The notes beneath the pieces were generated by a model that ran no database searches, was not told the origin of the DNA, and worked only from the letters and a program-made list of their open reading frames with translations. A stretch of 64,000 nt of DNA from a bacterium (GTDB taxonomy: Bacteria > Patescibacteriota > Gracilibacteria > BD1-5 > UBA6164), in contig JAGXIV010000036.1 of NCBI GenBank assembly GCA_024635485.1, positions 18,663 through 82,662 on the forward strand, given 5' to 3'. Below are positions 1 to 58,895 of this stretch, one piece after another. Position numbers and translations under genes: made by a program. Each line of letters begins with the position of its first letter. Positions within the stretch are counted from its first letter, which is position 1.

Positions 1-1808
1 AATAATGGATATTTTCCATCAGTTTTAAAGAGAAAATCACACATTTGTAGAGATTCAAACAAAGCATTTACTGCAGCACTTGAATATTCTCTGAGTGCTC
101 CATAATGCTCATATAAATCTAAATTCCAGTCAGAAATTCTCTTTTCGTTGCTTCCAAGTAGGACTTTTGCTATCAGTGTTTGACCAAATTTCTCATTGTA
201 TTTTTTTACTGTTTCAAGAATAATTCCGTAACTACTGGCTGGAACGAGCTTATCTTTTTGTTCACTCGTAAATTTATTTCACTCGAGACAATAATCACAG
301 AGTCCACAATTATCTTTGAGATTTTTTACATCCTCTACATCTCCAAAGTATTCTAAAATAAATCTTTTTCTACAACTTGGATAAAACAAAAGCCTTTTAA
401 TTTGTTCGAGCTTAAAATAGGCTTCATCTTTGAGGAGCTCTTGTCGCTTCCAATCAATCATGAGATGTGCGTGCTGTCTCTTTTCTTGAAGCAGTGTCAA
501 TCATCGTCATCTAAAATCTGATTCTCGGTCTGTTTCCTCAAGTCACCTACGAAGTACATTATATTTTTCCAAAATTTTTATAATACTCCCAACAATCATA
601 TCATTTCCAACTCCAGATTCACTGGCCATAACATAGTATGTTTTTGCAACTCTCGTCCCTGAACCTTCTCAAATTTTTGATTCTTTATAGAGATAATCAT
701 AAAAATCTAAAATAAGTTTTTTTTCTGGATAAGTATTATCAATAAAAAATTCTTGAATTTTCGTATCTCCATAACTTGCAAGTACAATCCCATAACTCAT
801 TCTCGCGTCACGTCCAGCTCTCCCAACTTCTTGATAATAATTTTCTATACTACCAGGCAGATTGTAGTGGATGACAAAACGAATATCTTTTTTATCAATT
901 CCCATACCAAAGGCATTGGTGGCTACCATGACTTTATACTGGTCATTCATGAATTTATTTTGTTCTGATTCTCTGACATCAGCTGATAAATCTCATTTAT
1001 AGACTCCCGTTTTAATTGATTTTGAAAGCAAGTATTCACTCAGTTCAATCACATGCTTTCGACTCGAACAATATATAATCCCAGTTCCAGGAGTTTTTTC
1101 TATAATTTCAAGAACTTTTTTTTGCTTATCTTCTTTTGCTGAAATTTCTCGAACTACGAGAATAATATTTTTTCGATCAAAACCTGAAATAAATTCTTTA
1201 TAACTTTTTAAGCCAAGTCTTTCTACTATATCTTTTCTTACTTTCAGCGTTGCGGTTGCAGTTAATCCAATAATTGGAAAATTTCTCTGAGAACCAGAAA
1301 GGCTCTCAATGAAAGTTTTAATTTTCATATAACTTGGACGAAAATCATGTCCCCACTGAGAAATACAGTGCGCTTCATCTATGGCAACGGCTGCGATTTT
1401 TACCGTTTTTAAAATCCCAATAAACTCATTTGAATTGAGTCGCTCAGGAGCAATGTAGAGAAATTTAATAGGGTTCTCATCATCATTTGAAAAATACCTT
1501 AGCTCGTGCAAGATATCTTGTTTTTCACGTCCAGAAAGAGTCGAATTAATAAGTTCGGCTCGAATTCAAAGTTCACGAAGACTATCAACCTGATCTTTCA
1601 TAAGAGAAATAAGAGGAGAAATAACAATCGTAATTCCTTCTCGTACCATTCCAGGAAGTTGATAGGTTAAAGACTTTCATCCTCATGTCGGCATAAAAAC
1701 AAGCGTATCTTTTCACGCAACGATATGCTCTATTATTTCTTGTTGTCAGTCACGAAATGACTCCAGACCAAAGACATTCTGAAGGATATTTTCTATATTT
1801 TTTTGCAT
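1..1808 (-). CDS. recQ: ATP-dependent DNA helicase RecQ (C-terminal end lies beyond the window start)
   Basis: Track fragments 279-500, 669-950 and 993-1511 share one frame and are separated only by TGA. With TGA=Gly they give [11 protein letters not shown], Walker A MPT-G-G-GKS (two Gly are TGA), [17 protein letters not shown] and the zinc finger CRKRF..CGLCDYC. ATG at 1808. I translated the frame codon by codon and it stays open down to base 3. Confidence 0.9.
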
Positions 1809-1924
1809 AGACCCATTATGCTCCATTTGTTTTTTAATTCAACTGAAATACAAATAATTTACTTAATTTTGAAGCGTGAAAATAAAATGGTACAATGAAT
1901 ATATACATTCAAATAATTTAAAAA

Positions 1925-2461
1925 ATGAGCATAGAACAATCTCCTGAAGAAAATGAGGAGTTAGAAATATTAGTAGAAAAAATAAATGTATTTTTTCTAC
2001 TTTCTGAAGGTGAAACTGAGGCATTAAAAATGACGAGTGAATGAAAAAGACATAAACAAATAGCACACGAATTGCAACTGACTGAGTCAGCAATAAAAGA
2101 AAGAATTAGATGAGCTAGAGAAAAAATTTCTAAAAATCAGAATTTTTCTTCGAGTTATGAAGGATTTTATTGAGAGATTAAGTGACTTGCAGAAGCTATT
2201 TCATTAATAATTTGACTCCACAAAAATGATATTTTGTCAGATAAAATATTATTTTTAGAATGAATGAAAATACTCACTATTATAAGCTCTGAAAATGGCA
2301 AAGAAAGAGCGTTTAAAATAAAAATTGACCATATAGCAAGAAAGGAAAATTGATTAAATAAGAAAGTTTCTGGTTCTAAGAAAAAATGATTAAATACGCA
2401 AGTTTCTGGTTCTAGGAAAAAATTTAAATGAAAGGTCCACAAAACTATTACTTCTTCATAA
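1925..2461 (+). CDS. LuxR/GerE-type HTH protein (178 aa)
   Basis: ATG 1925, TAA 2459-2461, several in-frame TGA. The N-terminal HTH reads LSEGETEALKMTSE-G-KRHKQIAHELQLTESAIKERIR-G-AREKI. The rest has no domain I recognise. Confidence 0.6.
2351..2422 (+). repeat. 36-bp tandem duplication inside the 3' end of the LuxR-type gene
   Basis: tgattaaataagaaagtttctggttctaagaaaaaa is followed by tgattaaatacgcaagtttctggttctaggaaaaaa. They encode GLNKKVSGSKKK and GLNTQVSGSRKK. Confidence 0.7.
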
Positions 2462-4286
2462 CTTCATTTCCGATTTCTTTATATTTTTCGTAATATTCTT
2501 CCACAAATTTTCTACATTTTTTATCATTTGGAAGATACACTCAATTTTCTTTTACAACAAATTCATAGAGGAAATTTCCTGCTTCCATTTGATTTAAGTA
2601 GGTGAAAATGAGTTGTGTATAGGTTCCAGTGAGTAAATCTTTAAAAATACTGAGCGTTTCAGGCGAATAGTGAAAAGAAATTTTTCCAAACCTATAAGTC
2701 AAAATTCATGATTCAAAAAGAACGTGAAGATGAATGAGGCATTCACAATAATACGGAAGAATATCCTCAACTTCTCTATATCTCATCATTCGAATAGAAC
2801 GAACGAGATAGGTAATAAGAACATCTTCATCAAGCTCAGTATTTCATCCAGCGATAAAATAAGCTACTATTCATCCAGCTGTTGCCTTAAATTCTTCTAT
2901 ATTTTTAAAAAGTCATTTTTCCCCCATGGCAAGTTCACTTTGAGGAGTGAGCCAGAGCGTGTGCCCAAATTCATGACCAATAGTTTCTATATCATAAATT
3001 TCATAATATCTGTTTGCATCTCAGGCTAGAAAAGCTCTATATTTTTCTAAAATTTGACTATCTATCATCTCATAATCAAGCTTCATTTTAGGAGCTGATT
3101 TTTGTGATTCAAGGACGTACTTTGGGAAGGCAAAGATTTTCTTTCCGTAGATTTTACTGACTTCTCCATCATTTGGAACGACTTGAGCACTGTAGGCTCA
3201 AGTTAAAAATGAAGCGTACTGTAACACAGGAGCTCAAATATAGAGTTGGACTTTTTTTTGATTCTGAAGTGAGTATTGATAACTTTCATTAAAATTCTCT
3301 CGTCCAATTTCATCAAACATCGCTTCATACATATGTTCGATATTTTTAGATACGTGAGATTCCATAAGACTTGGGTCTGAGAGTCGCATATCAAACTCTA
3401 TAGCCACACTTCGTCTATACGCATCATCATAATATTCCATGAGATGGCCTGGTTGTACCGGTGTATCAATATCCATCCAAAGAGTATCTACCTCACTCCA
3501 TTTTTGTACACAGTGGTTTACATTCGTTTCATTCAAAGCTTGTTGAACCGCTTTGAAATATGCAATATAGGCTTGTTTTTTATTATAGACTGGATCTTCA
3601 AGTTGTTCTAAATTTTTGATAAAAATATCATAGGCTTGTGATATTTTTCAAACTTCCTCTGGAAAAGCTTCTGCGTAACTGACAGAAGTGTATCACTCTC
3701 CTGATTTTTGTAATACTGAATAACATCTATCTGCAATTTCTCCATGATGTCCCAGGTCAAAGAGATTATTTTCTTCTAAGAAAAAAATAATTGCATCTTG
3801 ATTATCATTAAACTTTGCCTCAAGTTCTCTATTTTGTTCAAATAATATTTTTCTGTTCCAAACAAGAAAAAGATTACTATAGAGTTTACCAAGAGTATGA
3901 GTTCACTGAAATATTTCCATATAAAATTCTGGAAGAAGATTTTGAGATTTTAATTCGCTTAAGAAAATCTCTTGTTTTTCTTGATAATAGTGACTCACGT
4001 AGCTATAACTTTTCTCAAAAATCTCATCTCTCTGTTGTTGATTATATCAAAGTTTTGTAACATATACATCAAGTGATTCACATTTTTTATCTGAAAGTCG
4101 AGCACTCACAGCATATCTTGATGTTGCATTTTTTTCTAAGCCTAAATAATCAAGAAAATTATCTAGAATTTTTTGAGCAGCAAGATCGTCATGGACTCAA
4201 TTACTGAGCGTGTTGAAATGAGATTCAGTTGCTTCAAAGAGTCAGTGAATTTTTGTTATATTTTTTTCAAATTGTTCCTGTGTCAT
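2448..4286 (-). CDS. pepF: M3-family oligoendopeptidase F (612 aa)
   Basis: ATG 4286, TAA 2448-2450. Track ORF 3234-3536 is in frame. The zinc motif ETIGHEFGHTLW is encoded at 2952-2987. I translated the 3' 270 nt codon by codon without meeting TAA or TAG. Confidence 0.8.
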
Positions 4287-4302
4287 AAATATTATGTATC
4301 AA

Positions 4303-4330
4303 AAAAGTAGTATAAATACATACTACTTTT
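4303..4330 (-). terminator. Rho-independent terminator hairpin
   Basis: 10-bp stem aaaagtagta / tactactttt with an 8-nt loop, flanked by A and T runs. It lies just downstream of the 4365-4904 gene. Confidence 0.6.
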
Positions 4331-4364
4331 TGTTTATTAAATGTAAACCCGAGAATAATTTCTC

Positions 4365-4904
4365 TTATGCTCTATCTTTTGGTATAATTTTTAAAATTCT
4401 CCTGTCATGTAGTTGAATTCCTTCTCTATTGAGTTCTACGCGAAGAGTCCAGCTATATTTTTGTGGTTTTCAAGCCCTATTATAGTATCATCGATGTATG
4501 AGTTTTGTGTCGGTATCTTTTGTGAGTTCTGGAATCTCATCTAACTCAGGTAATGTAAAATCAAAGGTAAAATTTTGGCTGGTTCATGATACATAGTGCG
4601 CAGCATCTGCAAGTTCTTGAGAAAATCTTCTAATTTCCGATTTCATAGAATTCGATCGACCATGTGCATAGGCTACTTTTCTTTCACGTAAAATAAGATG
4701 AATAGAAACACCATCGGTATTCATATCTCTTTTTGTATGTAATCGTACACTTCCATGGATAATCTCTCCATAATGAAATACTTTTTGAGGAATGTTAATC
4801 TTAATATTTCCCTTCAAAAATTTCCTAAATTGCATACAAAGAATGTATCAAATTAAACCTAAAAAAACAAAGGCAAAAAGTGAAAGTATAAATATTTGTA
4901 GCAT
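4365..4904 (-). CDS. Hypothetical membrane-anchored protein (179 aa)
   Basis: ATG 4904 gives an N-terminal TM helix MLQIFILSLFAFVFLGLI-G-YIL. Track ORF 4584-4835 is in frame. It extends through 3 TGA over exactly 74 codons to TAA 4365-4367. Confidence 0.5.
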
Positions 4905-4967
4905 AATAAAAGACTAAGAAGTATCTTAGTCTCTAATTATAGGAATTTTATTTAAAATTGCGAGTGA

Positions 4968-6794
4968 TTATTTTTTCCATCCGTAACTATTTCCTCCAGA
5001 ATCACGTGATGAGCCACTCGAAGAATTTCTTGATCGACTTGCTCAAGCTCCTTTGTATCCCGAACCACCAGAACTTCGACCTCCTCCAGAGAAGCCACTT
5101 CAACCTCCTTTGTATCCTGAACCTCCTGAGCTTCGACCTCCTCCAGAGAAGCCACTTCAACCTCCTGAAAATCCTCTACTACCTCCTCCTTCATTATTTC
5201 GAGACTTTGCTTGAACCACGAGTGGTTTTACTCTATCTTTTGCTTTATAAAAATCAAGAACTTGTTGCGCGATATCTTGTTGGAGATTCATATAAGAAAA
5301 TTTTTCGAGAACGTCAATTTTTCCAACATCACCAAGTCGAATCCCTACTTCTTCTTCGAGCATTCTGATTAAACTTCCAGGATCAAGATTATCCATTTTT
5401 CCTTTTGCGATAAAGATTCTTTGTTCTCCGTTTGGAGCCATTTGTGGAGTTTCAGCAATAATATTATATGATTTTTCATCAAACTTATCTGCGTGAGCAT
5501 CTTTGAGAATTGCAGCAAGTACAATTTCTGGAGTTCCTAGTTCGAGTAAACTTTTTGCCATTGATTCAAAATCTGAAAGTTTTGCATCACTGATAAGGTT
5601 TCAAATATTTTCAACCATTCTCTTTTTTTGTATTTCTACTACTTCTTTTGCTCCAGGAACTTGTCCTTTTGTCATTTTTTGTTTGAGAAGTCTTTCAATT
5701 CCAAAGAGTTTTCTACTATCTGTTCGTGAAACGAAGTTAATAGCAGTCCCAGTCTTCCCAGCTCGAGCCGTTCGACCAATTCTATGTGTGTACACTTCAG
5801 CATTATCTGGAAGAGAATAGTTTACGACGTGAGTCAGGTCTTCAACATCGATTCCTCGAGCTGCAACATCAGTAGCTACGAGAATAGATATTTTTTTAGA
5901 TTTAAATCGTGCAAGTACTTTTTCTCTGTTTTTTTGTTCAATATCACCGTGAATTGCTTCAGCTTTGATTCCTCGACCAATAAGTTTTGATGCTACTTCA
6001 TCAACATCCATTTTTGTTTTACAAAATACGATTCCATAAAAATCTTCTGTCATATCAATCACTCGAGAAAGAGCTTCAAACTTATTTCTTGGAGCTACCT
6101 CGTAGTAAATTTGTGTAATTCTATCTGAAATAGTTGTTTTCGATTGAATCGCAACAGTATCATAATTATGCATATATTTTTTCGCAAGCATAAGAATTTC
6201 TCTTGGCATAGTTGCAGAAAAAAGAAGCGTTTTTTTATTGTCTGGAGTATGAGTCAAGATTTCTTCGATTTCTTCTCGAAACCCAATATTGAGCATTTCA
6301 TCAGCTTCATCTAAAATGAAATAAGCTATATTTGAAAGGTCGAGAGTTCTTTTTGTAATAAGGTGATCCTTTACTCTTCCTGGTGTTCCAACTACAATAT
6401 GTGCTCAATTTTTTAATTCTCGAAGTTCATCTCGAATATTTTGTCCTCCGTAGAGAAGTGTGATTTTTACTTTTGGATCAGCAAATGACTTAATCTCATT
6501 AGCTACTTGAATCGCAAGTTCTCGAGTTGGAGCTAAAATCATAGCCTGAACTCATCTTGCAGAAATATCGAGTCTATCTAAAAGTGGAAGTCCAAATGCT
6601 GCAGTCTTCCCTGTTCCTGTTTGTGCTTGACCAACGATATCGTTGTCACCATTGAGCAGAAGTGGAATAACTCCCGCTTGAATATCTGAAGGATGAATAT
6701 ATCATTTTTTTTCAATTGCCGAGAGAAGTTTTTCTGAAAGACCTAAGTCTCTAAAAGTAATTTTATTCTCAGGAGTCGCTGTTGTTTCTGTCAT
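4968..6794 (-). CDS. DEAD-box ATP-dependent RNA helicase with DbpA-type RNA-binding domain and Gly/Arg/Ser tail (608 aa)
   Basis: ATG 6794. Motifs [25 protein letters not shown] and [10 protein letters not shown] are present. Track ORFs 5601-6296 and 5157-5561 are in frame. The tail runs through 3 TGA to TAA 4968-4970 (64 codons counted). Confidence 0.9.
5048..5161 (-). repeat. 57-bp tandem duplication encoding the RGG-like tail unit
   Basis: The unit encodes [19 protein letters not shown], and the first Gly of each copy is a TGA codon. The two copies are adjacent and differ at a few bases. Confidence 0.7.
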
Positions 6795-47586: not shown

Positions 47587-48222
47587 CTATGCAGAAGGCA
47601 TAAGTACTGAATCAATTACAAATGTAACTCCATTAGAAGAGATAACATCAGCAGTTTGTATTTCAACTCCATTTACATACCATACATTATCTACATAGGT
47701 AATTTCAAGATCTTCACCTTCGACAGTAGTAAGAATCATTCCATCTTCTAAATCAGCAGAAGTATAAGCACCAGGAACTACGTGATATGTAAGAATCTTT
47801 GTAAGTTGATCTTTATTTTCTGGCATAAGTAGTGTATCTACTGTCCCAGCTGGAAGTGCATCAAATGCATCGTTTGTAGGAGCAAATACAGTAAATGGAC
47901 CTTCACTCTTGAGGGTGTCAACTAATCATGCAGCTTGTACTGCAGCTACGAGAGTAGTTACATTATCTGCGTTCATAGCGTTATCAACAATATCCAATGA
48001 TGGAACCATCATAGCTCCTCCAACCATTACACCTTCTTCGTTCATATTTTGATCTTCCATTCCCATGTCTGTATTCATGTCTTCGTTCATATTAGAACCA
48101 TCCATGGTTTCAGACATATCTGTATTCATGTCAGTAGTAGTATTCATATCTGAAGTATCATTACTTGAACAAGAAGCAAGAATAACAGCTGAAAGAATTA
48201 AGAGTCCTAGAATATTTTTCAT
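47587..48222 (-). CDS. Fasciclin (FAS1) domain lipoprotein with a Met/Asp/Asn-rich linker (211 aa)
   Basis: Track ORFs 47926-48222 (lipobox ILAS-C-SS, DMNT-type low complexity) and 47587-47826 are in frame. Motifs FTVFAPTNDAF and YHVVPG. TAG 47587-47589. Confidence 0.75.
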
Positions 48223-52941: not shown

Positions 52942-52975
52942 AAAAATATCCTAGAAAATCTAGGATATTTTTTTT
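52942..52975 (-). terminator. Terminator hairpin
   Basis: aaaatatcctag-aaaat-ctaggatatttt, immediately after the stop of the repeat-protein gene. Confidence 0.7.
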
Positions 52976-53750
52976 AATAAGAATAACAAGAATAACCGTA
53001 TACTAGATCAAAATTCGAGCCATAAACATAATGACCGTTTTGATAGCTATATTGTGAATAGTAACAATAATCTGGATTGTATGGAATATAATCAGCACCA
53101 TATATGTAACGTGGATAGTTATTATACTCGATATTGTAGGGTGATTCTTGATTATAATTATTGTAATTTACAGGAAAGTCATTTCACTGGAAATTGTTAT
53201 AATCTATATTTCTATTTGAACCTTGGAAATTATTATAGTCAATATTATTCTTACTGTTCTGAAAACTTTCATAATCTATATCATCTCTACTTCTTTGGAA
53301 GTTATTATAGTCTATGTCATACTCATTTCACTGGAAATTATTGTAATCTATATTTCTATTTGAACCTTGGAAATTATTATAGTCTATATTATTCTTACTG
53401 TTCTGAAAGCTTTCATAATCTATATTATATCAAGATTTTTTATAATTTTCGTAATCAATATTATATTTAGATTTTTGAAAATCATTATAATCAACTTCAT
53501 ACTCACTTCCCTGGTACGTATTGTAATTAATATTATACTTTGATGTTTGAAAATCGTTATAATCGATGTTATAACCTGCGTTTTTGAAGTTATCGTAGTC
53601 AATGTCATATTTATTTTGACTCGGAAAACTATTGTAGTCAATATTGTACTGAGTCTGAGTCGGAAAGCTATTATAATCTATCACTGCATGAGTCACTAAT
53701 GACTGTGATGATACAGTGATGATACAGAGGATGTAAAATATTTTTTTCAT
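52974..53750 (-). CDS. Secreted Tyr/Asn/Asp-rich tandem-repeat protein (258 aa)
   Basis: Track ORF 53430-53750 (signal peptide MKKIFYILCIITVSSQSLVTHA) continues through 3 TGA. I translated every codone down to TAA 52974-52976. There are about 16 units such as YNIDYNSFPSQNK, YNIDYNDFQTSK and NIDYNNFQGSNR. Confidence 0.6.
53050..53660 (-). repeat. Coding tandem repeat, 36-39-bp period, with a higher-order 144-bp duplication
   Basis: About 98 bp at 53183-53280 recur at 53327-53424 with 4 mismatches by my alignment. The short period corresponds to the 12-13-residue (N/D)IDY(N/E)xF(Q/P) unit. Confidence 0.75.
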
Positions 53751-53755
53751 TCTGT

Positions 53756-54508
53756 CTATTTAATATATATTCTTCCTTCTTTTACTTCAGGAAGATTAGG
53801 ATTTACCCAAGTTGGAGTGGAAGTATAATTCATTGTATGAGTTCCATAACAATTTTGAGTATATTCAGAATCATTAAAACGATAATCAGGATACTGAGAA
53901 TAACTATAACAGATTCGAGGATTAGAATTGTACAAAGTTGTTTGTTTTGCAGAATAAATTCTTTGACCAGAAGTTGAGTAATAATAAGTGTTTACATTAT
54001 TATTACTATAATTTTCTTGTCTTTCTATATCATCTATTATTTGTTGTAATTGTTTTTGTCTTGAAACAATATAACTTTTTTCTTGCTCTAAACTATATTC
54101 ATAATCTCTATAATAGTTTCCTTTCATTTTAGAAATATTAATGAGTTGTACATTAATTTGTGCTTCTTTCTTTCTTAAGAAATTTTTTTCGTCTTTTAAT
54201 CTCTTATAATCAGTATTAAAATTTATTGTATTAGATTTGTAATAATTGTTCGCGAAAGTATTCGTTTGCGTGTAATTCTTATTTCTTATACTATAATCTG
54301 AATAATAATATGGTGATTTTGTATTAATATATCCTCCCGTTTTATTAAGATCATAGCTATAGCTTGGAGTCAAAGTTTCCAGAGTATCTGGATCTAAACG
54401 AGATTGGATATTAGAGTTTCCAGTATTTGTATAATATTCAAAAAGTCCTGCCTGAGCTTGGGTAATACTGATAATAAGGAAAAAAACTATTTGGAGAAAT
54501 ATTTTCAT
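53756..54508 (-). CDS. Secreted Tyr/Asn-rich protein (250 aa)
   Basis: This is an intact track ORF with signal peptide MKIFLQIVFFLIISITQAQA. The flanks are Y/N/S/T-rich around a central coiled-coil-like segment (KRLKDEKNFLRKKEAQINVQLINISK). It has a TAG stop and no TGA codon. Confidence 0.6.
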   Translation of the reverse strand: MKIFLQIVFFLIISITQAQAGLFEYYTNTGNSNIQSRLDPDTLETLTPSYSYDLNKTGGYINTKSPYYYSDYSIRNKNYTQTNTFANNYYKSNTINFNTDYKRLKDEKNFLRKKEAQINVQLINISKMKGNYYRDYEYSLEQEKSYIVSRQKQLQQIIDDIERQENYSNNNVNTYYYSTSGQRIYSAKQTTLYNSNPRICYSYSQYPDYRFNDSEYTQNCYGTHTMNYTSTPTWVNPNLPEVKEGRIYIK

Positions 54509-54620
54509 AGAAGTTATTTATGAATTAATATATCTCTATTATGCTAAAAAATGTTATTTGTCAAATATAATTTAATAATGTCAATGAATGATAAAATACA
54601 ATAATGAGACTCATATAATT

Positions 54621-56921: not shown

Positions 56922-58316
<1,395 letters not shown>

Positions 58317-58517: not shown

Positions 58518-58895
58518 TTATTTAATCTCCTTATCAACATATATTTTTATATCTTCATCTTCCTCATCATCTTCAGAAATATCTTGAGATTTATTAGATT
58601 GAGTATGGCTTGTTTTGACAGTTGTAGTAACAACTTCTGTTGTATTTCGAGAAAATCATATATAGAAGTATTTTCGAGCAATCACTGAAACTACAAGAAC
58701 AAGCAATAATATAAAATATTGAATTTTGTTAAATAACTCTGTATTTTGTGGTATATCTGGATCTGGAATTTGTCATCCAAACAAACCAATAACAATAGGA
58801 AATAAAAGAGAGAACGCTATAGAAATAATAAGAACATAGAGCACGTATAACACTATATTTACTATTACTTTAGCGGCTATTGGTAAATCTCTCAT
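58518..58895 (-). CDS. Two-TM hypothetical membrane protein inserted between atpG and atpD (125 aa)
   Basis: ATG 58895. Helices VIVNIVLYVLYVLIISIAFSLLFPIVIGLF and IQYFILLLVLVVSVIA, then an acidic tail SEDDEEDEDI. TAA 58518-58520. Confidence 0.45.

Follow-up and report, generated by a model that had tools for sequence, protein, structure and literature searches.

A Gracilibacterium (BD1-5) was previously found to encode a predicted extracellular protein built of Pro-Thr-Asp (PTD) repeats, in which the repeat array broke the genome assembly and the repeat was kept through synonymous change (Sieber et al. 2019, mBio, PMC6851277). Long stem-loops flank its gene, and the product was read as a surface or adhesion determinant (PMC6851277). 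Here, we describe two adjacent genes for exported proteins of 250 and 258 amino acids, P250 and P258, which lie next to a type IV pilin gene in a 64,000-nucleotide stretch of a BD1-5 genome (GCA_024635485.1, contig JAGXIV010000036.1, positions 18,663 to 82,662 of the forward strand; hereafter, the window). P258 resembles the PTD-repeat protein in its phylum-level group, in its genetic code and in having in-frame tandem units in a chain predicted to be extracellular. In contrast, the PTD protein is a coil of 3-residue units and has an N-terminal membrane anchor, whereas P258 has a 12-residue Tyr/Asn/Asp unit and a cleavable signal peptide; the two share no sequence similarity, and adjacency to a pilin gene was not described for the former. 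Moreover, the PTD repeat is shared with a co-occurring Colwellia (PMC6851277), whereas the scans reported below detected the P258 unit in no organism beyond a narrow clade. Together, P258 and P250 define a new family restricted to one clade, of a type that is broadly familiar, the length-variable secreted repeat protein of a host-dependent bacterium with a small genome.

Size-variable surface proteins are well known from the Mollicutes, among them M. pulmonis Vsa, Ureaplasma MBA and M. hyorhinis Vlp. The number of repeat units in such proteins varies and alters surface behaviour (PMC7954426). These proteins, like P258, belong to host-dependent organisms with small genomes and a reassigned TGA codon and consist of in-frame units of about a dozen residues, and the same variation in unit number was found here (16 units of 36-39 nucleotides in P258 and 31 in its homologue on JGI contig Ga0210036_1000003). 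In addition, the DUF285/PARCEL domain, which is typical of mycoplasma surface lipoproteins, is present in the neighbouring pilin. However, the Mollicute proteins are lipobox lipoproteins with phase-variable promoters and form gene families, whereas the signal peptide of P258 is of type I and its gene is single-copy; no sequence similarity was found. Curli offer a third comparison, since CsgB and CsgA are adjacent, small, Sec-exported proteins with short Asn/Gln-rich imperfect strand-turn repeats. P250 and P258 are likewise an adjacent exported pair of which one is built of repeats, and one could plausibly nucleate or anchor the other. Unlike curli, P258 has no Curlin match and has a unit of 12 rather than ~22 residues, with a strongly acidic chain in which Tyr is very abundant. 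BLASTP did not identify P250 and P258 as paralogues (E = 0.15), and no dedicated export genes are present.

Two further systems concern proteins that act with pili. In modular type IV pilins, a pilin module is joined to a bulky non-pilin module that the filament is expected to display for use in adhesion (Raynaud et al. 2021, PNAS, PMC8179133). The pilin of the window resembles them in its fusion of N_methyl to a DUF285 module; this comparison is not informative on P250 and P258, neither of which is a pilin. TcpF and CofJ are cargo proteins whose N-terminal signals dock on minor pilins, the mature peptide binding the minor pilin trimer (PMC9565799). As in the TcpF and CofJ systems (PMC9565799, PMC6048534), genes with Sec signals stand in or next to a pilin cluster, a conserved N-terminal peptide of the mature protein contains a key aromatic residue, and a large modular minor pilin is encoded. 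The locus described here differs from them in the lack of homology, in the PARCEL module of its pilin and in envelope type.

The window has a G+C content of 32%. When it is read with translation table 11, its genes are interrupted by TGA, and lists of open reading frames (ORFs) made on that table fragment most of them. The in-frame TGA codons of AtpD (region 56922-58316) fall on invariant glycines of the Walker A motif and of later motifs (GGAgVGKT, FAgVGERTREgND), and the window is thus read in code 25, in which TGA encodes Gly, as in Gracilibacteria and Absconditabacteria. In-frame TGA occurs 11 times in GlmS, 18 times in the pilin, three times in P258 and not at all in P250. On the minus strand, the ATP synthase operon is followed by the genes for the 588-residue pilin, P250, P258 and a 171-residue methyltransferase-like protein, then by a 125-residue ORF and glmS. 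The pilin stop and the P250 start are 112 nucleotides apart, and only 5 nucleotides separate the P250 stop from the P258 start. A preliminary description, made from the DNA letters alone, had placed both genes on the pilin strand with these gaps; the coordinates and spacer sequence agree under code 25, and its description of the pair was borne out in every detail, given that reading.

Both proteins begin with clear signal peptides, as had been claimed, with classical n-, h- and c-regions and A-x-A-type sites. The sequences are MKKIFYILCIITVSSQSLVTHA for P258, with cleavage predicted before V, and MKIFLQIVFFLIISITQAQA for P250, with cleavage predicted before G. The pair are composition outliers among the proteins of the window, with Tyr plus Asn contents of 36% and 24%, as compared to at most 17% in the other real genes. 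Mature P258 contains 20% Asn, 19% Tyr and 10% Asp, with a net charge of -18, and the aromatic content of P258 is 25%. The preliminary estimate of about 16 tandem units and a Tyr-rich tail proved exact: 16 units were counted, and every unit and tail sequence quoted in it is present. The consensus of these 16 units and of 31 units of the homologue is [N/D]-I-D-Y-[N/D]-x-F-Q-x-S-x-Y. Tandem Repeats Finder detected periods of 36, 72 and 144 nucleotides in the P258 DNA, with scores up to 399, and DNA patterns for the unit lattice gave 4 and 11 matches in the window as compared to 0 in 100 shuffled sequences. Peptides readable from the code-25 translation include YNIDYENYK, and a further peptide of the pair is NNIDYNNFQGSNR. 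In the segment Y-N-I-D-Y-N, aromatic and aliphatic side chains alternate with amide and acid ones, placing the former on one face and the latter on the other, and a variable G/S-rich segment comes next. This pattern fits a short strand followed by a turn; other conformations are also possible. The tail that follows the array retains both of its Cys residues, in the context D-Y-[IV]-P...D-Y-C-Y, in a pairwise alignment with the homologue.

The array bears signs of recent expansion at the DNA level. Two stretches of 98 nucleotides differ by only 4 mismatches and correspond, in frame, to units 8-10 and 12-14, in agreement with what had been noted earlier. In the pairs 8/12, 9/13 and 10/14, identity extends to 34, 35 and 32 of 36 nucleotides, respectively, whereas other unit pairs mostly match at 14-29 of 36 nucleotides (40-80%), so that only units 8-10 and 12-14 are recent copies. 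The residues I2, D3, Y4, [ND]5, F7 and Q8 are kept across units. Their codons nevertheless alternate synonymously (Ile ATA, ATT or ATC; Asp GAT or GAC; Tyr TAT or TAC; Phe TTT or TTC; Gln CAA or CAG), and the ratio of synonymous to nonsynonymous codon differences is 246:239 at the six motif positions as compared to 74:541 at six variable positions. Because the motif codons differ synonymously while the residues stay the same, we conclude that the motif is under purifying selection in the minus-strand frame. An antisense frame on the plus strand (53031-53699) is also open for 222 codons over the array and would encode an Ile/Val-rich, hydrophobic product. Its openness is explained by the near absence of the Leu codons TTA and CTA from P258 (one Leu in 236 residues) and by the fact that TGA is not a stop. 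We rejected it as a gene: it is a by-product of Leu-poor coding, and the synonymous pattern fits the minus-strand frame only.

P250 has a net charge of approximately +4 and belongs to a family of five members, comprising P250 itself and four relatives among 5.8 billion proteins. The relatives are P0002 (55% identity; JGI contig L001), P0003 (164 residues; Candidatus Gracilibacteria GCA_010119145.1, locus L002, 10001-10495), P0004 (44% identity; locus L052) and P0005 (27% identity; locus L053). As stored in the database, P0002 (L001, 4813-5715) has Trp at TGA and a start placed 50 residues too early. In the alignment of the five homologues, the mature proteins start with G-L-[F/Y]-E-Y, and A20, G21, L22, E24 and Y25 are invariant; this start is the best-conserved N-terminal feature of the family and corresponds to GLFEYYTNTGNS in P250. 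At the other end, the family shares the motif P-[ST]-W-V-N-P-[ND]-L-x-x-[VI]-K-x-G-x-I-x-I-[KHR], and the invariant columns are C200, P232, W234, V235, N236, P237, L239, K243, G245, I247 and I249. The charged, coiled-coil-like core flanked by Y/N/S/T-rich segments that had been described for P250 coincides with helices 97-126 and 131-167 of its AlphaFold model, the one part modelled with moderate confidence. In P0003, the middle ~88 residues (about residues 93-182, including the helical hairpin) are cleanly missing while both conserved ends are kept, and this form is present in two independent assemblies (L002 and L032). Thus, the coiled-coil core is dispensable. Mature P250 and P258 each contain exactly two conserved Cys residues around a Tyr-rich loop, 20-22 and 26 residues apart, respectively. 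A paralogous origin of the pair with a shared Cys-bounded loop found no support from BLASTP (E = 0.15), and we regard the resemblance of CYYSQYSY to CYSYSQY as anecdotal.

P250 and P258 are probably co-transcribed, judging from the sequence. Within the unit comprising the pilin, P250 and P258, a terminator hairpin is found only after P258, where it closes the unit; its RNA folds at -15.4 kcal/mol (z = -5.8), and 0 of 200 shuffled sequences fold as well. The identical hairpin sequence stands 3' of the stop codon of the homologue. A terminator scan found none between the pilin and P250. The two TTGACA hexamers in the spacer between these genes suggest that P250 and P258 may have a separate promoter. 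One of them stands 15 nucleotides ahead of CATAAT, a spacing outside the limits of our consensus promoter scan (16-18 nucleotides), which gave no match in 54509-54620.

The preliminary description could assign neither protein to a known family, and our searches led to the same result. P258 matched no Pfam family at E <= 1 and nothing in NCBIfam, PHROGs or the PDB sequences; the P250 family likewise has no relative in Pfam, NCBIfam, PHROGs or the PDB. Profiles of the P250 family and of three P258 units had no significant match in the PDB. A word-indexed search of the 5.8 billion proteins returned no match to P258, and in a local phmmer control the syntenic homologue would score E = 9e-58 against P258 if present. 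Exact look-ups in a collection of 15 billion proteins found no tested form of P258 or of the homologue fragment. HMMER, run in full over 1.84 billion representatives, returned two matches, both rejected as chance resemblance to unrelated repeats. We also scanned 185,579 species genomes, 241 million metagenome records and viral contigs with DNA patterns for two or three consecutive P258 units. The two genome matches are not homologous, one being a FIDYNH hexamer repeat in a Ruminococcus metagenome-assembled genome (MAG) and the other a single chance match in a Sulfurovum MAG. The former lies in JAFXCR010000006.1 of Ruminococcus sp. (L003, 5369-5572), where 68 open codons of FIDYNH/FINYNH hexapeptides match the pattern by chance. 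Among the 47 stretches from the metagenomes, 44 are simple hexamer-type repeats and three come from one related organism, that of L002; the 12 matches in viral contigs are all simple repeats.

Several tests for described classes of surface protein were also negative. Neither P250 nor P258 has an N_methyl match or fits the prepilin regular expression, and they are therefore not type IV pilins or pseudopilins by these measures. P258 contains no Curlin repeat (PF07012, Ser-x5-Gln-x-Gly-x-Gly-Asn-x-Ala-x3-Gln) and matches no other amyloid or solenoid family in Pfam. The lipobox [LVI][ASTVI][GAS]C is absent from the first 30 residues of both proteins, and the homologue does not conserve the Cys of the P258 signal peptide. 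Neither an LPXTG-type anchor nor a second hydrophobic segment was found in either protein, the maximum 19-residue hydropathy beyond the signal peptide being approximately -0.15, and aromatic cell-wall or choline-binding repeats of the CW_binding_1 type gave no match in Pfam or NCBIfam.

Locus L002 is fully syntenic with the window, with the atp operon followed by genes for a 592-residue pilin, a P250-like protein, a P258-like protein, the methyltransferase and a small ORF, and then glmS. Its P258-like protein shares with P258 the cleavage context V-H-A|V, the first unit, the last three units, a TGA position, the Cys pair and the terminator hairpin, and its array is interrupted by a run of N. 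JGI contig Ga0210036_1000003 is from the same organism, and two stretches stored for it join in frame to give a protein of 437 residues and 31 units with a net charge of -60. The join was made on the basis of the reading frame, and the count of 31 units is therefore a minimum. Of these, 17 are identical in protein sequence (DIDYDKFQGSEY) and nearly identical in DNA. A comparison of unit number across related genomes, put forward earlier as a check, thus gives 16 units here and at least 31 in the L002 organism. L001 stops 50 nucleotides into a signal-peptide-like ORF that begins 6 nucleotides past its P250-like gene. Since the related assemblies show a gap or a contig end at this place, arrays of the P258 type regularly defeat short-read assembly. 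Exact look-ups of the P250 and AtpC sequences found no other assembly of the same strain on record.

At greater distance, only the P250-like gene of the pair was found. In L052, whose AtpC is 82% identical to that of the window, a P250-like gene lies 3' of atpC and the pilin gene comes next, in reversed order. In L053, where the methyltransferase is 57% identical to that of the window, its gene comes directly after the P250-like gene, across a gap of ~90 nucleotides. A P250-like gene thus adjoins a pilin gene in all four loci with enough flanking sequence (the window, L001, L002 and L052). Because P258 is missing at L052 and L053, we consider P250 to be the older gene, which keeps its pilin neighbour, and P258 a younger insertion confined to the closest clade. 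The position next to the pilin had been taken to suggest a shared function; this argument holds to a modest degree for P250, with its pilin neighbour in four of four loci, and is weaker for P258, which is missing in the two distant ones. Between the window and L002, identity is 96-97% for AtpA, AtpD and AtpG, 90% for GlmS, 80% for the methyltransferase-like protein, 76% for the pilin, 50% for P250 and 45-58% for the alignable ends of P258. P250 and P258 are therefore the fastest-evolving genes of the locus, and the pilin evolves much faster than the adjacent ATP synthase genes. Such a rate of divergence is typical of exposed surface components. The coordinates of the features are listed in Table 1.

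Table 1. Features of the P250-P258 locus in the window, read in code 25 (positions are those of the window).
Feature	Position	Strand	Remarks
Intrinsic-terminator-like hairpin	52942-52972	minus	14-bp stem, U-rich tail; starts 2 nucleotides past P258 stop
P258, exported 258-residue tandem-repeat orphan	52974-53750	minus	code-25 gene model
P258 signal peptide, residues 1-22	53685-53750	minus	classical n-h-c, A-x-A-type site; ...SLVTHA then VIDY
P258 array, residues 23-217	53100-53684	minus	16 units of 12-13 residues; DNA period 36 nucleotides
Duplication copy 2, units 8-10	53327-53424	minus	partner of 53183-53280
Duplication copy 1, units 12-14	53183-53280	minus	4 mismatches in 98 nucleotides to 53327-53424
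In-frame TGA, Gly107	53430-53432	minus	unit position 11; repeat motif stays in frame beyond
In-frame TGA, Gly141	53328-53330	minus	unit position 9; Gly is the consensus residue there
In-frame TGA, Gly189	53184-53186	minus	unit position 9; TGA at same place in homologue (FQgNDF)
P258 Tyr-rich tail, residues 218-258 (41 residues)	52977-53099	minus	two Cys, C229 and C255, 26 residues apart
P250, exported 250-residue orphan	53756-54508	minus	code-25 gene model, no TGA
P250 signal peptide, residues 1-20	54449-54508	minus	...TQAQA then GLFEY; A-Q-A before G
P250 charged helical hairpin, residues 97-167	54008-54220	minus	AlphaFold helices 97-126 and 131-167, predicted local distance difference test (pLDDT) 53-67
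P250 C-terminal module, residues 183-250	53759-53962	minus	Tyr-rich loop between invariant-position Cys C200 and C220
AT-rich spacer, pilin stop to P250 start	54509-54620	minus	112 nucleotides; two TTGACA hexamers
Modular type IV pilin, 588 residues	54621-56387	minus	18 in-frame TGA; prepilin N-terminus KKQAFTLVELIVVITILAILG and DUF285/PARCEL repeats
Methyltransferase-like gene, 171 residues	52382-52897	minus	N-terminal hydrophobic segment; class I

The neighbouring pilin is the only protein in the window that fits the prepilin regular expression. It matches N_methyl (2.9e-06) and, above the cut-off, DUF285 (PF03382, 1.4e-46) in Pfam, as well as IV_pilin_GFxxxE in NCBIfam; its matches to the PARCEL-repeat models of NCBIfam lie below the curated cut-offs (NF045896, 1.7e-35, 122.8 bits as compared to 500; TIGR02167, 28.5 bits as compared to 30). 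Between the prepilin N-terminus and the DUF285/PARCEL repeats, a middle part of ~330 residues matches no family. The DUF285/PARCEL domain is best known from surface proteins of mycoplasmas and Listeria. In L001, two tandem DUF285 pilin-like genes (1519-3297 and 3608-4831) stand 5' of the P250-like gene, whereas the window and L002 have one each; the second copy, 407 residues as called, may begin further upstream.

The methyltransferase-like protein gave weak Pfam and NCBIfam matches only, all below cut-off. Its gene stands 3' of P258 here and directly 3' of the P250-like gene in L053, and it is thus a member of the same conserved neighbourhood. Some observations concern other genes of the window. 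A 125-residue ORF between atpG and atpD (58518-58895, minus strand) encodes hydrophobic N-terminal segments and an acidic tail, DISEDDEEDEDI; it is 65% identical to its L002 counterpart and has no significant Pfam match. A Fasciclin-domain protein (47587-48222, minus strand; Pfam 1.3e-38) has a lipoprotein-like signal peptide, of which Cys18 would be the first mature residue, and a mature N-terminus consisting of a Met/Asp/Asn-rich low-complexity stretch of ~45 residues, DMNTTTDMNTDMSETMDGSNMNEDMNTDMGMEDQNMNEE. At the 3' end of a 608-residue gene on the minus strand (4952-5194 / 4968-6794), a second, overlapping frame encodes acidic repeats.

As to function, we tentatively favour a reading in which the pair form a layer outside the cell or at its surface, or an adhesive, and work with the pilus when the host-dependent cell contacts other cells, although we would place it somewhat short of probable. 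This reading builds on the reality of the genes, the export signals, the repeat anatomy, the change in unit number, the selection on the motif, the divergence, the orphan status and the linkage; from these, we infer surface retention, beta-type structure, adhesion and cooperation with the pilus. Both proteins would be exported by the Sec pathway without a membrane or wall anchor. P258 would be an acidic structural repeat rich in aromatic and amide residues, in which a strand-like core, Y-[N/D]-I-D-Y-[N/D], would be followed by x-F-Q and a G/S-rich turn, and its array would be capped by the conserved first and last units and the Cys-bounded Tyr-rich tail. Slippage or unequal recombination may shift the length of the array by whole 36-nucleotide units or by blocks of 72 or 144 nucleotides. 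P250, with its GLFEY start, optional helical hairpin and conserved C-terminal module, would be the older partner beside the PARCEL pilin, to which P258 may add a multivalent Tyr/Asn/Asp surface, adjustable in length, that could associate with itself or bind polysaccharide or protein. In an extended form that we think improbable, P258 would have arisen recently, by amplification of a 36-nucleotide seed 3' of P250, and would represent a new class of self-assembling extracellular polymer of repeats, such as a 12-residue cross-beta or solenoid fibre or a Tyr-crosslinked cement; GLFEY of P250 would dock on the PARCEL pilin at the tip of the pilus, and the two proteins would hold a Gracilibacterium, as an episymbiont or predator, fast to its host, with reach or specificity set by the length of the array.

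Several results weigh against the layer or adhesive. The AlphaFold2 model of P258 residues 22-106 has a mean pLDDT of 37.9, with essentially no alignment depth, and that of P250, based on three sequences, a mean of 41.7. Neither model gives a confident fold, and the beta-solenoid, amyloid-like or Tyr-crosslinkable material suggested in the preliminary description drew no support from them or from the family searches. The charge-hydropathy index of P258 (-0.28) is as compatible with a disordered chain as with a folded one. Neither protein has an anchor or wall-binding domain that would explain its retention at the surface. P258 is absent between P250 and the methyltransferase in L053 and between P250 and the pilin in L052, and it is thus dispensable for the activity of P250 and the pilin. 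In addition, the genomes with the full arrangement are close relatives (AtpD, 96%), and the linkage may therefore be partly inherited gene order instead of a product of selection.

The low-confidence model and the negative fold index are shared by a rather unlikely alternative, suggested by analogy, in which P258 would be a largely disordered, length-variable coat whose unit number tunes the exposure of the pilus or surface to phages, predators or hosts. In-frame units of 12-13 residues that differ in number between relatives, together with very fast divergence, would be expected of such a shield, and the repeat length of M. pulmonis Vsa governs adherence and biofilm formation by steric hindrance (PMC7954426). 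However, P258 has neither a lipobox nor another anchor, an aromatic content of one residue in four is unusual in a passive spacer, and old, diverged units keep I-D-Y-N-x-F-Q position by position, which argues for a structural or binding constraint rather than bulk. P258 could instead be a beta-roll in which N/D-x-D-x-N/D and G/S turns bind Ca2+ or another divalent cation, so that the acidic chain folds only outside the cell, as in RTX proteins. Nearly all units do have oxygen-donor side chains at positions 1, 3 and 5, G and S are frequent at positions 9-10, and the net charges of P258 and its homologue are strongly negative. We give this possibility a low probability: the EF-hand loop PROSITE PS00018, which forbids Tyr at one of the positions concerned, has 0 matches in P258 and the 437-residue homologue, and in P258 no match was found to the RTX nonapeptide GGxGxDxUx, to Pfam HemolysinCabind or to any other Pfam Ca-binding repeat. 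Weak PDB matches of P258 to EF-hand light chains (E = 0.2) cover the I-D-Y-x-x-F half-loop only.

Another explanation, modelled on TcpF/TcpB and CofJ/CofB and in our view also doubtful, is that P250, and perhaps P258, might dock through its mature N-terminal peptide on the pilin at the pilus tip and be presented or released there. It would account for the P250-like gene beside a modular pilin gene in four loci, including the one with reversed order, and for the strong conservation of G-L-[F/Y]-E-Y; in type IVb systems, secretion is directed by an N-terminal peptide in which one aromatic residue is critical, and the cargo is encoded inside the pilus operon (PMC9565799). However, no sequence similarity to TcpF or CofJ was found, and the pilin carries PARCEL rather than the lectin-like domain of TcpB and CofB. 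Patescibacteria are generally thought to have no outer membrane, and pilus-dependent export may be unneeded if it is absent. Finally, the genes could be non-functional, either a spurious or decaying ORF on a 36-nucleotide satellite or a mis-assembly, as the repetitive array, the open antisense strand and the gaps or contig ends in the arrays of related assemblies might suggest. We consider this very improbable, as the signal peptide, terminal units, Cys pair, TGA position and terminator are kept in a genome 3-4% apart in AtpA, AtpG and AtpD. Moreover, the synonymous and nonsynonymous changes fit the minus-strand frame only, the antisense openness follows from Leu scarcity, and most units, at 40-80% identity, are distinct enough for short-read assembly.

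Host recognition and attachment by Gracilibacteria and other Patescibacteria are poorly understood, and type IV pili have been implicated in them. P250 and P258 are reasonable candidates for host contact and specificity, being pilin-adjacent, exported and the fastest-evolving genes of the locus, with changes in length by whole units. Such proteins are probably kept out of reference sets by the joint effect of TGA recoding and of assembly breaks at repeats. The mis-translation of P0002 and the absence of P258 from the protein collection indicate that surface proteins read in code 25 are mis-recorded. Thus, with TGA recoding and assembly breaks acting together, the surface repertoires of code-25 lineages may be systematically under-represented.

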